Assembly (NCBI GenBank): GCA_963675745.2
Contig: CAXXWX010000027.1
Location: forward strand, 128,001 to 192,000
DNA: 64,000 bases
Direction: 5' to 3'
Origin: Phycisphaerae bacterium
Lineage (GTDB): Bacteria > Planctomycetota > Phycisphaerae > UBA1845 > Fen-1342
Shown piece after piece: positions 31,208-44,929 of the stretch. How positions within the stretch are numbered: position 1 is the stretch's first letter; each line of letters starts with the position of its first letter. The notes below the pieces were generated by a model. That model ran no database searches. It had not been told where the DNA came from and worked only from the letters and a program-made list of their open reading frames with translations. The translations under genes and the position numbers were made by a program.

Positions 31208-31288
31208 GTAGCGGCCTGCGGGGCGCAGGCCGTCGATGCACCAAGCTGTTTCCGATACACCGCGGCCTGCGAGGCGCAGGCCGCTACG
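31208..31288. repeat. inverted pair of GTAG-type REP palindromes
   Basis: GTAGCGGCCTGCGGGGCGCAGGCCG ... CGGCCTGCGAGGCGCAGGCCGCTAC; more copies at 32300-32365. Confidence 0.8.
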
Positions 31289-32299: not shown

Positions 32300-32365
32300 A
32301 CGGCCTGCGAGGCGCGGGCCGCTACGCTGGTATGACCCACGGCCTGCGAGGCGCAGGCCGCTACA
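32300..32365. repeat. two tandem GTAG-type REP palindromes
   Basis: CGGCCTGCGAGGCGC(G/A)GGCCGCTAC twice. Confidence 0.8.
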
Positions 32366-37304: not shown

Positions 37305-37389
37305 CGTCCGACCCCCGAGTCGGACGTTTTGTTTTCGTGAGTTTCCACCCACGACAAGGCACGGCCGACTCGGGGGTCGGCCGCTACGG
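37301..37389. repeat. inverted pair of GTAG-type REP palindromes
   Basis: GTAGCGTCCGACCCCCGAGTCGGACG ... CGGCCGACTCGGGGGTCGGCCGCTACG. Confidence 0.8.
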
Positions 37390-42819: not shown

Positions 42820-43305
42820 ATGTCCGCCGAGCCCAACGAAATGCTGCGTGCCGCGCTGCTGGACTTCCTTGACGAAGCCTTCAACCGCCGATCATGGCAC
42901 GGCACGAATCTGCGCGGCTCGATCCGGGGGCTCAGCGCGGCTGTCGCGTCACGCCGTACGACTGCCAGCCGACACACGATCGCCGAGCTGGTCGTCCATT
43001 GCGCGTATTGGAAGTACAGCGTTCGCCGGCGGTTGTTGGATCAGCCGCGCGGCGAATTTCCGCTCAAGGGTAGCGACTGGTTCACATTGCCCGACACCCC
43101 CACCGACGCCGACTGGAAGGGCTACGTCAAGCTGCTGGCCAGCGAGCACGACCAGCTTCGTGCGGCGGTCGCGTCCTTCGACGCCGCCCGGCTGGAACAG
43201 GTGCCGGCGGGCGGGAAGGTCCCCTTCGATATGCTCATCCGCGGCGTCGCATTGCACGACGTCTACCACGCCGGCCAGATTCAGGTGATCAAGCGCGTCC
43301 GCTGA
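42820..43305 (+). CDS. DinB family protein
   Basis: WHG, HTIAELVVH, HDVYHAGQI. Confidence 0.85.
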   Translation: MSAEPNEMLRAALLDFLDEAFNRRSWHGTNLRGSIRGLSAAVASRRTTASRHTIAELVVHCAYWKYSVRRRLLDQPRGEFPLKGSDWFTLPDTPTDADWKGYVKLLASEHDQLRAAVASFDAARLEQVPAGGKVPFDMLIRGVALHDVYHAGQIQVIKRVR

Positions 43306-43317
43306 CCATGACGCCGC

Positions 43318-43492
43318 GTGGGTGCCCCGCATGGGTGCCCCACGGCTTGCCGTGGGGGACTGACCGGAGGTAGGTTGGCACTTCAAACGGTGGGTGTGGG
43401 TGCCCCGCGGCTTGCCGTGGGGGACTGACGAGAGGTAGGTTGGCACTCCCACCGCCTGATCAGTCCCCCACCTCAAGAGGTGGGGCACCCGC
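43318..43492. repeat. GTGGGTGCCCC-type REP-like palindromes (two direct, one inverted)
   Basis: TGGGTGCCCC(A/G)CGGCTTGCCGTGGGGGACTGA...GAGGTAGGTTGGCACT twice; CAGTCCCCCAC...GTGGGGCACCC. Confidence 0.8.
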
Positions 43493-43556
43493 GCGTATGT
43501 GGCGCCGTCCGCGTTCGACGGCCGACGAGGACGTCGGCCGCTTCTATGCAAGCTCC

Positions 43557-43777
43557 GTGTCTGTCAAGCGGCGTTGGGGGGTGGACCCCAATCTTCTATC
43601 CGAGCATCTCCTGCGAGCAGGATAGCCCACACGGGTATTCCGAGCGGTGCGGGTTGCCCCATCTACGAACGAGCGTCAACAACAGCCCCAGCGGCCAACG
43701 AGCTCACCCGCGCCAAGATCCTCTCCCAGCCAAACGCCGCCCTCCGGTGCTCTCCGGAGGGGAAAGAAGTCTGTTTT
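43557..43777 (-). ncRNA. candidate bridge/seek RNA of the IS110 element
   Basis: Structured non-coding end downstream of the transposase containing target- and donor-matching segments. Confidence 0.6.
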
Positions 43778-44812
43778 TTAGCCCGCCGCCTCCACCGACG
43801 GCAACATCTCGTAATACAACTTCCGCACCCAGCGATTGGCCACCGCCGCCACGATCACGCAGCGGGCCTTGCCGGCCTGCGACAGTCGCGCGGCCAGATC
43901 ACACCAGTGCGGATCGTAGCGTTTCAGGCGATGGGCCAGTTCGATCAACGCCAGCTTCAACTGGCGATTGCCGCCACGCACCAGGCCGGCGTCCGCCTGA
44001 CGCTCTCCGCTCGACGCATTCTGCGGGCTCACCCCGCAGTAGTGCGCCAACTGCTTGCCAGAACCGAACCGCTCAAACTGCCCGATCTCAGCACGCAGCA
44101 CGCCGGCCGTGATCAGCCCGATCCCAGCCTGCTCCAGTAAGCGTTGGACCAGCGGATCATCGGCGACCGTTTCTCCCAGCCGTTGTTCATATGTTTTGAT
44201 CTCCGCCGCCAGGTAATCCAGATGACGCAGATGCCGACCCAACAACCATTGCGATTCGTTCGGCAAACGTGCGTCCGACGCCAGTTCGGTCAACCAAGCC
44301 TGGCCGCGTCGGGTCCACACGCGTCGCACCGTCTCCGGCTTGCCGATCCGAAGATCCCGCAACAACGCCCGCACACGCAGCTTCACCCGTCGAGCCTCTT
44401 CGACCAACGCTTGCCGCCCGCGGGTCAGACGCCGCAGTTCGCGAATCGCCGACGGCGCCAGCCATACCGGCGGCAGATAGCCAACACGCCGCAGATCGGC
44501 CAGCACACGGGCGTCGCTGTAATCCGTCTTGTCCGGATTCCGCTTCATACGCCGCACAAAGCCCGGATGGGCCAGTTGCACCGGCCAGCCCCGCCGCTGA
44601 ATCAGTTCGTCGGCCAGAGTGGCGGCTCCGCAACACGCCTCGATCGCCACCCCGCCGATCGGACCAAAACGTTCGGCGTATGCGATCAAGCGATCGCCCT
44701 CACTGCGCAGCCGCCGCGTGCCGAGTTGGCAACCGTCCGCGTCCAAAACCACAACCTGCGAAACCTGATCGGCGTAGTCAATCCCTACAAATACCGGTAC
44801 GCTACCTTTCAT
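43778..44812 (-). CDS. IS110-family transposase (DEDD recombinase)
   Basis: FVGID, IEA, KTDYSDA, GIGLITA, YCGVSP..SSG, RGGN. Confidence 0.95.
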   Translation of the reverse strand: MKGSVPVFVGIDYADQVSQVVVLDADGCQLGTRRLRSEGDRLIAYAERFGPIGGVAIEACCGAATLADELIQRRGWPVQLAHPGFVRRMKRNPDKTDYSDARVLADLRRVGYLPPVWLAPSAIRELRRLTRGRQALVEEARRVKLRVRALLRDLRIGKPETVRRVWTRRGQAWLTELASDARLPNESQWLLGRHLRHLDYLAAEIKTYEQRLGETVADDPLVQRLLEQAGIGLITAGVLRAEIGQFERFGSGKQLAHYCGVSPQNASSGERQADAGLVRGGNRQLKLALIELAHRLKRYDPHWCDLAARLSQAGKARCVIVAAVANRWVRKLYYEMLPSVEAAG

Positions 44813-44929
44813 CGCTTGCTCCTTGGTCAGGAAACTCGATTTACCAACCCGAGTTGTACTCGGGAGACCAAGGAGCTTGCATCCCCATCTACGGCGGTGT
44901 GCGTGTGCCCCGCGGAGGTGTTGGCGTGG

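Follow-up and report, generated by a model that had tools for sequence, protein, structure and literature searches.

An intact IS110-family insertion sequence of IS1111 anatomy within a GTAG hairpin repeat of a Phycisphaerae genome, and its predicted two-loop guide RNA

The element, its gene and its target repeat

The stretch of DNA analysed here (the window) comprises 64,000 nucleotides of a Phycisphaerae bacterium (GenBank assembly GCA_963675745.2, contig CAXXWX010000027.1, positions 128,001 to 192,000), and the genome to which it belongs is a metagenome bin of 5.2 Mb in 28 contigs, 91% complete and with 6.08% contamination. The window contains an intact IS110-family element of IS1111 anatomy inserted in a GTAG hairpin repeat, and the features of both are collected in Table 1. 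The element is bounded by a repeated CT (AG in the orientation of the gene), which an earlier note, made from the sequence alone, had taken for the core at 43541-42 and 44889-90 and which direct reading confirms; the core is equal at both ends in 64 parsed relatives, the parser score having favoured equal cores.

Table 1. Coordinates of the element, its predicted RNA and its target repeats in the window
Feature	Position	Strand	Remarks
Insertion sequence with one copy of the 2-nt core	43543..44890	-	1348 bp
Core dinucleotide AG (CT on +), left end	44889..44890	-	direct reading; equal cores at both ends in 64 parsed relatives (parser score favoured them)
Core dinucleotide AG (CT on +), right end	43541..43542	-	direct reading
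Left-end extension ATGGGG	44883..44888	-	right donor arm in the predicted circle
Left subterminal inverted repeat ATGCAAGCTCC	44872..44882	-	11 bp
Right subterminal inverted repeat ATGCAAGCTCC	43546..43556	+	11 bp, perfect against the left; then extension AGA (43545-43, - strand)
DEDD recombinase gene	43778..44812	-	344 aa; PF01548 + PF02371; residues D12, E58, D97, D100, S268
Target-binding unit of the predicted bridge/seek RNA	43646..43714	-	long stem, internal loop, inner hairpin; RNAalifold consensus, 50 relatives
Target guide 1 (putative), UUGGCCGC(U)	43690..43698	-	complement of core + right target; covariation over 41 guide sets
Target guide 2 (putative), (UU)CGU-AG	43661..43669	-	same sense as left target + core, then AU
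CCGCT, not a guide	43643..43647	-	end of first stem + linker + start of second unit; paired columns in consensus fold
Donor-binding unit of the predicted RNA	43587..43644	-	sequence repeat of the first unit's scaffold
Donor guide 1 (putative), CCCG(UGU)	43629..43635 (4-mer 43635-32)	-	complement of left-end bases +2 to +5, one G-T wobble
Donor guide 2 (putative), AUAGA-AG	43593..43599	-	same sense as right end + core
-35 box TTGACA, directed outwards at the right end	43562..43567	-	completed by GAAGAT only in the predicted circle
REP-like hairpin, right half of target	43519..43540	-	9-bp stem + 4-nt loop; same variant uninterrupted twice on contig C17
Left target bases CGT (GT of GTAG tetramer)	44891..44893	-	
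Two empty target repeats, inverted orientation	31208-16 and 31279-87	- and +	
Two empty target repeats in tandem	32317..32364	+	
Empty target repeat	37379..37387	+	

The product of the single gene, which had been read as an IS110/IS1111 recombinase, exceeds the cut-offs of PF01548 and PF02371 (a RuvC-like DEDD domain and an SG-motif domain) and reaches 208.5 bits, against a cut-off of 140, with the NCBIfam IS110 model NF033542. Its residues D12, E58, D97, D100 and S268 align with D11, E60, D102, D105 and S241 of IS621, and among 47 relatives the last four are invariant while D12 is present in 90% or more. The IS1111 group is recognized by subterminal inverted repeats, 11-13 bp long, that leave about 7 nt free at the left end and 3 nt at the right (PMC11187229). 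The element has this anatomy: its 11-bp repeats, which the earlier note had overlooked, lie 6 nt from the left core and 3 nt from the right one, and the non-coding stretch downstream of the gene is long (235 nt 3' of the stop, compared with 78 nt 5' of the start, core included). Upstream of the repeat cluster, at 42820-43305 on the plus strand, is a gene unrelated to the element that encodes a DinB-superfamily protein (PF12867), and a second repeat family adjoins the target at 43320-43490, with several copies there and 17 genome matches to one 23-nt pattern.

When the element is taken out of the site and one CT is left, the sequence that remains is a perfect 9-bp hairpin followed by CT-AC, which reads GTAG and hairpin on the minus strand, or CGT-AG-hairpin in the orientation of the gene. 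The earlier note had described this as excision that restores a REP; the reconstructed sequence is correct, but the process is less certain, given that a rejoined target was not detected for ISEc11 (PMC11187229) and that a copy-out route has been proposed for another IS110 (10.1101/2025.10.25.684509). For IS621, excision with restored target is reported at low efficiency (among PMC11208158, PMC13626964, PMC13604230 and 10.1101/2025.05.14.653916).

The REP-like character of the target is borne out by its other copies. The junction 9-mer GGCCGCTAC starts at 31279, 32317, 32356 and 37379, the empty sites already listed from the sequence, and a fifth copy was found at 31208 on the minus strand; these five matches in the window compare with 0.77 expected, and none of 100 shuffles reaches five. 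Genome-wide, the motif GT-AG-CGGCC occurs 278 times, versus 51 in one shuffled genome, and a closing hairpin arm is present at 185 of the 278, 63 of these 185 being one variant. The repeat thus has the GTAG tetramer, the GC-rich hairpin, the many copies and an inverted doublet (31208-31287) that are features of GTAG REPs. The genome (91% complete) encodes six PF01797 (Y1 transposase) proteins, none of whose genes has the target repeat within 1.5 kb, and since no cognate RAYT stands beside the repeat, it is called REP-like by form.

Relatives of the element and the predicted RNA

In order to compare the element with its relatives, 104 loci were collected, among them 80 metagenome loci that are the best 80 of 537 confirmed; a scan of genome contigs with this one protein as query had found only two loci. 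Six loci with partial genes were dropped; both ends were obtained for 64 of the remaining 98, and 34 gave no pair of ends. The 64 parsed relatives have recombinases 50-100% identical to that of the element, and 54 of them (10 lacked one) yielded full guide sets. Once duplicates are removed, 41 guide sets with flanks are left, and 35 different targets. The patterns by which ends, guides and registers were located had been fitted to the element's own family, which counts against the model presented below. In general, the ends are nearly constant among these relatives and the targets are variable.

The position of this family has been examined with a protein tree of 24 rows, 12 of them references, in which it forms its own long branch (100/100) outside the IS4321 clade and on the ISAzs32/IS4321 side of a weak split (89/89); the tree includes no IS621, IS1111 or Piv row, and the failure of the protein to nest among IS4321-like proteins counts against the model. 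The best BLAST scores are with haloarchaeal and ISAtu7-like proteins. The search for a named close relative was negative in several collections: the 5000 best plasmid records are all below 60% identity, the 30 best that were listed lying at 27.5-33.2%; the family's signature peptides are absent from the ISfinder protein set (PMC11187229, supplement file 6), apart from a single AHPG match in ISMtsp9, in a different context; and three end or RNA motifs were not found by text search of the supplements to PMC11187229 and PMC11208160. A description of the lineage was likewise not found in the largely open-access literature searched, and a search for IS110, REP and Planctomycetes together returned no match except one paper on HUH enzymes. 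The branch appears, in the lists searched, to be without a named or tested member, the named elements that were found being 27-33% identical. The earlier claim of an unexplored lineage stands in this respect, but not entirely, for a relative is already a row of the 2024 IS110 phylogeny table (PMC11208160): 04158c8b1089212f4f, an unnamed Planctomycetes leaf that shares AHPG, PDKTD and NASSG and to which the table assigns no ISfinder element. The labels of the relatives likewise point to a planctomycete as the probable host.

The region 3' of the gene in the relatives consists of two tandem units built on one scaffold. RNAalifold, applied to 50 distinct cores, folds the first unit into an internal loop that encloses an inner hairpin, and recovers the hairpin of the second; a 3-bp closing stem of the second unit (98% paired, with no two-sided change) was added beyond this prediction. 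With the closing stem included, 95.3% of cells are paired in the whole structure, versus 38-53% in slid controls, and cells with two-sided changes number 173 versus 57.5 in shuffles, with 0 of 500 shuffles as high. The number of pairs with a two-sided change (13) is within the range of shuffles (59/500). The element's single 3' region folds no better than its own shuffles (z -0.19), which counts against the model, so that the fold rests on the alignment; the only Rfam matches are three at chance level, far under the gathering scores. The proposal that the 3' non-coding end harbours a guide RNA is nevertheless favoured by this covarying fold, and by the way in which the guides follow the targets and ends of the relatives.

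Guides, proposed mechanism and competing explanations

The first unit is assigned to the target. The putative target guide 1 corresponds to TTGGCCGCT at 43698-90, a better match to the target that the earlier note had not seen. It scores 5.80/6 matches against the right target and is perfect in 33 of 41 guide sets, compared with 2.56 when guides and targets are shuffled and 0 of 10000 shuffles as high (the better of two registers was taken in real and shuffled sets alike). Target guide 2 (43669-63) scores 2.73/3 against the left target, with 31 of 41 perfect, versus 0.99 in shuffled sets and again 0 of 10000 as high; it contains the CGTAG (43667-63) that had been noticed as a left-target guide. 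Thus, the covariation of guides and targets that had been suggested as a check is observed, since the 41 guide sets track 35 different targets, and this wide variation makes reprogramming a natural property of the family. The order of the guides, with the complement of the top strand first and the match to the bottom strand second, is that reported for IS1111. Target guide 2 is followed by AU in 40 of 41 sets and by GU in one, and the AT of the donor is almost invariant, so that covariation provides no evidence on a handshake; the equivalent dinucleotide of the donor loop equals the first two bases of the target in 1 of 41. The arrangement is compatible with AU acting as a candidate handshake with the first two donor bases.

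The second unit is assigned to the ends of the element as they would be joined in a circle. Donor guide 2, that is, AT, extension and core, is exact in 50 of 50 relatives and tracks three independent changes: core CG (three relatives of one clade), core TG (one) and extension CGA (one). The same word is present 48-59 nt before the right repeat in the four of 12 references that have a 12-bp repeat (L111, L116, L121 and L124, namely IS4321 and three other plasmid elements of its clade, all with the end spacing of the present element), with the extensions AGA, CTA and ACA in a comparison that carries no shuffle control; these copies of right end and core are likely donor guides as well. The match of ATAGAAGAT (43599-91) to the circle junction had been read as nine nucleotides long: its ATAGA-AG stands as the putative donor guide, but the two letters after the core vary (AA 31, AT 6, AC 3 and TA 1 of 41) and the match is therefore really of 7 nt. 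The other donor guide, which could not be resolved by eye, is now placed at CCCG (43635-32) and is less strictly tracked. It fits 45 of 50 relatives, one of them in a shifted register. In 11 informative relatives the left end has changed; the guide has changed with it in 6 and fails to do so in 5, which counts against the model.

This uneven behaviour of the donor guides is relevant to the description of such RNAs as seekRNAs, in which the target unit would guide alone, the protein would read the ends through the subterminal repeats, and the second unit would be dispensable or a regulatory copy. In ISEc11 a short RNA of 82 nt with the target matches alone supported transposition, and repeats of 11-13 bp mark the ends of IS1111 elements (both PMC11187229); in the present family, donor guide 1 is weak and the ends are nearly invariant, so the donor covariation rests on few events. 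These arguments are outweighed, in our judgement, by the fidelity of donor guide 2 to core and extension in all 50 relatives, by the retention of the right-end word in four IS4321-clade elements with three different extensions, and by the conservation of the second unit's scaffold with two-sided changes; furthermore, a preprint interprets target-loop-only activity as a partial pathway (10.1101/2025.10.25.684509). Guidance by the target unit alone is consequently regarded as rather unlikely.

The ends also bear on the expression of the element. The TTGACA at 43567-62 and its completion as TTGACA-N17-GAAGAT on joining of the ends had been pointed out from the sequence, and the promoter geometry holds: in 53 of 55 distinct relatives TTGAC and the right end are separated by exactly 25 nt, a fixed spacing that supports the predicted junction promoter. 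The hexamer 17 nt beyond the -35 box in the circle would be GAAGAT (50), GACGAT (3) or GATGAT (1), and the same hexamer in the inserted state ends in T in 4 of 61. Counting against the model, the junction -10 GAAGAT has 3 of 6 bases of TATAAT and is below the threshold of the scanner, which found neither promoters nor terminators (0 and 0) in the linear element.

Taken together, these observations make it very probable that the element is an IS1111-type bridge recombinase, the anatomy, target choice, covarying fold and guide tracking having been computed here, and transcription, binding, the circle and the chemistry being carried over from IS621 and ISEc11. In this mechanism, the non-coding right end would give rise to an RNA at least about 130 nt long, to which the DEDD protein would bind. 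Two units of similar build would make up this RNA, and in both of them the inner hairpin of an internal loop would be flanked by one guide on each side. The first would read, on both strands, the target sequence (C/T)GT-AG-CGGCC(G) that forms the foot of the abundant GTAG hairpin repeat, while the second would read the joined ends of the circle, ATAGA-AG-ATGGG, and strand exchange at the shared AG core would leave the core on both sides. The AU that follows target guide 2 may serve as the handshake, by analogy with IS621 and ISEc11, and the joined ends would complete a promoter that drives both gene and RNA.

Whether the element still functions is a separate matter, and the other copies in the genome provide the relevant information. 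The second copy (G000:C15:282127-283503) is identical between the cores, all seven differences being in the flanking repeat, so that two identical copies lie on different contigs with different flanks. All three junction-bearing copies (the window copy, the C15 copy and a C15 stub) are at GT-AG-CGGCC in the same orientation, which agrees with the expectation that copies should share their flanks and not insert in unrelated sites. It has to be considered that the element could be inactive now, or that its two copies could result from an assembly duplication; the source is a metagenome bin with 6.08% contamination and the genome contains decayed relics. Contigs of four sequencing runs include no circle joint, and this says nothing either way, as contigs drop rare forms. 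Against this possibility, the frame and residues are intact, the identical copies have different flanks on different contigs, and in run X2 the element forms a contig of its own whose limits coincide with the shared target bases (43536-44892), with a depth of 34.8 versus about 9 for the flanks. In run X1 the depth of the element contig is 27.8 versus about 4 for the flanks; both runs derive from a single sample, which is possibly the source, and depth does not equal copy number. Run X3 represents a different sample from the study; in one of its contigs the right end is followed by the most frequent variant of the repeat, at a site absent from the assembly. The share in run X4 is too small for use. 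Inactivity or duplication is accordingly judged distinctly improbable, and the element, intact in sequence, has probably been active recently.

Several decayed pieces were observed in the same genome. In the stub (G000:C15:426832-426915), only 69 bp of the left end are left, followed immediately by the right half of a repeat. An AAG inside the element, similar to the junction at the right end, marks the breakpoint, which suggests that the remainder was lost by excision at a false core or through microhomology. An orphan, decayed target-binding unit (G000:C26:629500-629539), with both guides, a shorter inner hairpin and one base lost, lies near a cluster of target repeats with neither recombinase nor donor unit alongside. 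Heavily decayed remains of the left end and of the 3' part of the gene run into half a repeat at G000:C1:264750-265200, where the RNA region is gone. A 30-bp match (29/30) to the hairpin just 3' of the recombinase stop is found at G000:C3:266254-266283, the rest of the element being absent, and a weak match to the C-terminal part of the recombinase (29% over 142 aa) at G000:C18:18364-18786 is perhaps a fragment of another IS110-family element.

Another way of looking at target choice is to suppose that the protein recognizes the repeat hairpin or GTAG and that the RNA matches are secondary. Among the 43 distinct targets of the relatives, 19 have GTAG at the junction, many of them followed by hairpins; the other 24 lack it, several of these being without a hairpin, and GTAG targets are weakly clustered on the family tree (11 changes versus 15 when shuffled). 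Nearly identical proteins use different targets that their guides predict, which renders recognition by the protein highly improbable. Guides and targets also change together between close relatives on the protein tree, such as L025/L037/L039, L014/L015 and L016/L018, in line with the bridge-recombinase mechanism.

The arrangement that the earlier note had drawn in IS621 order, with CGUAG first and CCGCU (43647-43) second on either side of a GCAA hairpin, can be set aside almost with certainty: CCGCT is complementary to AG-CGG in this one element and slightly above shuffles (0.98/3 matches versus 0.78; 369/10000), but covariation refutes it, since the upstream segment is perfect in 33 of 41 sets and CCGCT in one (this element). 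In addition, IS1111-type elements have the guides in reverse order (PMC11187229), the GCAA hairpin is no conserved helix, its bases pairing upstream in the consensus fold of 50 relatives, and those of CCGCT belong to the paired scaffold. The rejected guide fits this single target by chance, and the target guides flank a different hairpin in the opposite order.

Relation to known guide-RNA systems

The predicted bridge recombinase can be compared with two groups of characterized elements. With the IS1111 elements for which seekRNAs were described, ISPa11, ISEc11, ISKpn4 and IS4321 (Siddiquee et al., 2024, PMC11187229), it shares the 11-bp subterminal repeats with short, unequal extensions, the long 3' non-coding region, a 344-aa protein, a junction promoter (predicted here) and, as in the four members, the complement of the top strand placed before the match to the bottom strand. 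ISPa11 also has a REP target, although a different REP. IS4321 has the same end geometry and spacing and the same ATAGA word in its RNA region, but its protein is 27% identical and the new element falls outside its clade. The element differs from this group in its AG core and in its two simple tandem loops with a readable donor unit, whereas the seekRNA work describes target matches only.

With IS621 and ISCro4 (Durrant et al., 2024, PMC11208160; Hiraizumi et al., 2024, PMC11208158) it has in common the DEDD and serine residues and two pseudo-symmetric loops, each formed by stem, guide, hairpin and guide, and IS621 likewise has a REP target. The differences are that the RNA here lies behind the gene and not before it, that the subterminal repeats are long, that the order of the guides is reversed relative to the gene, that the protein similarity is weak (54 bits), and that the natural cores are AG, CG and TG. 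Read from the opposite strand, however, the element can be mapped on IS621, in what is our own mapping: its core would be CT, its first target guide would be 9 nt long and its second one short, and an AU would face the AT of the donor.

A broader reading, to which we incline slightly, is that the lineage constitutes a natural library from which it can be seen that a full bridge RNA with two loops serves the IS1111-type elements, the donor loop tracking core and ends here and in the IS4321 clade, and the reversed order being that of IS621 read from the other strand. Bridge RNAs have been predicted in 93% of the ISfinder IS1111 members, with donor guides drawn for three (PMC11208160), and the term IS1111 does not occur in the main text of a study that screened 72 orthologues in human cells (among PMC11208158, PMC13626964, PMC13604230 and 10.1101/2025.05.14.653916). 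If the broader reading is true, the seekRNA and bridge RNA descriptions would be of one mechanism; the lineage, as a third long branch next to those of IS621 and IS4321, would offer a compact RNA of about 130 nt for programmable recombination; and at least 35 natural targets, together with natural cores AG, CG and TG, would be available. The two papers of 2024 disagree on whether it is RNA or protein that recognizes the ends of IS1111-type elements, and a second loop that tracks the ends of the element is relevant to this question.

Neither the mechanism, described in 2024, nor the targeting of REPs by such elements, which was known before that, would surprise a specialist. What appears to be new, judging from comparative sequence analysis, is the placement of all four guide positions in a branch for which no named or tested member was found, and as these positions are resolved by natural variation, reprogramming can be put to a direct test at a large evolutionary distance from the enzymes assayed so far.

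Two groups of relatives may be mentioned for their cores. In the CG-core clade (L072, L074, L076, L079 and L081), both RNA loops follow the core. Another relative, in which the core is TG and the left extension 5 nt long (L095 and L102-L104, genome G215), is present in four copies at one target, two of which lie on contig C3 of that genome in opposite orientation, about 1 kb apart.
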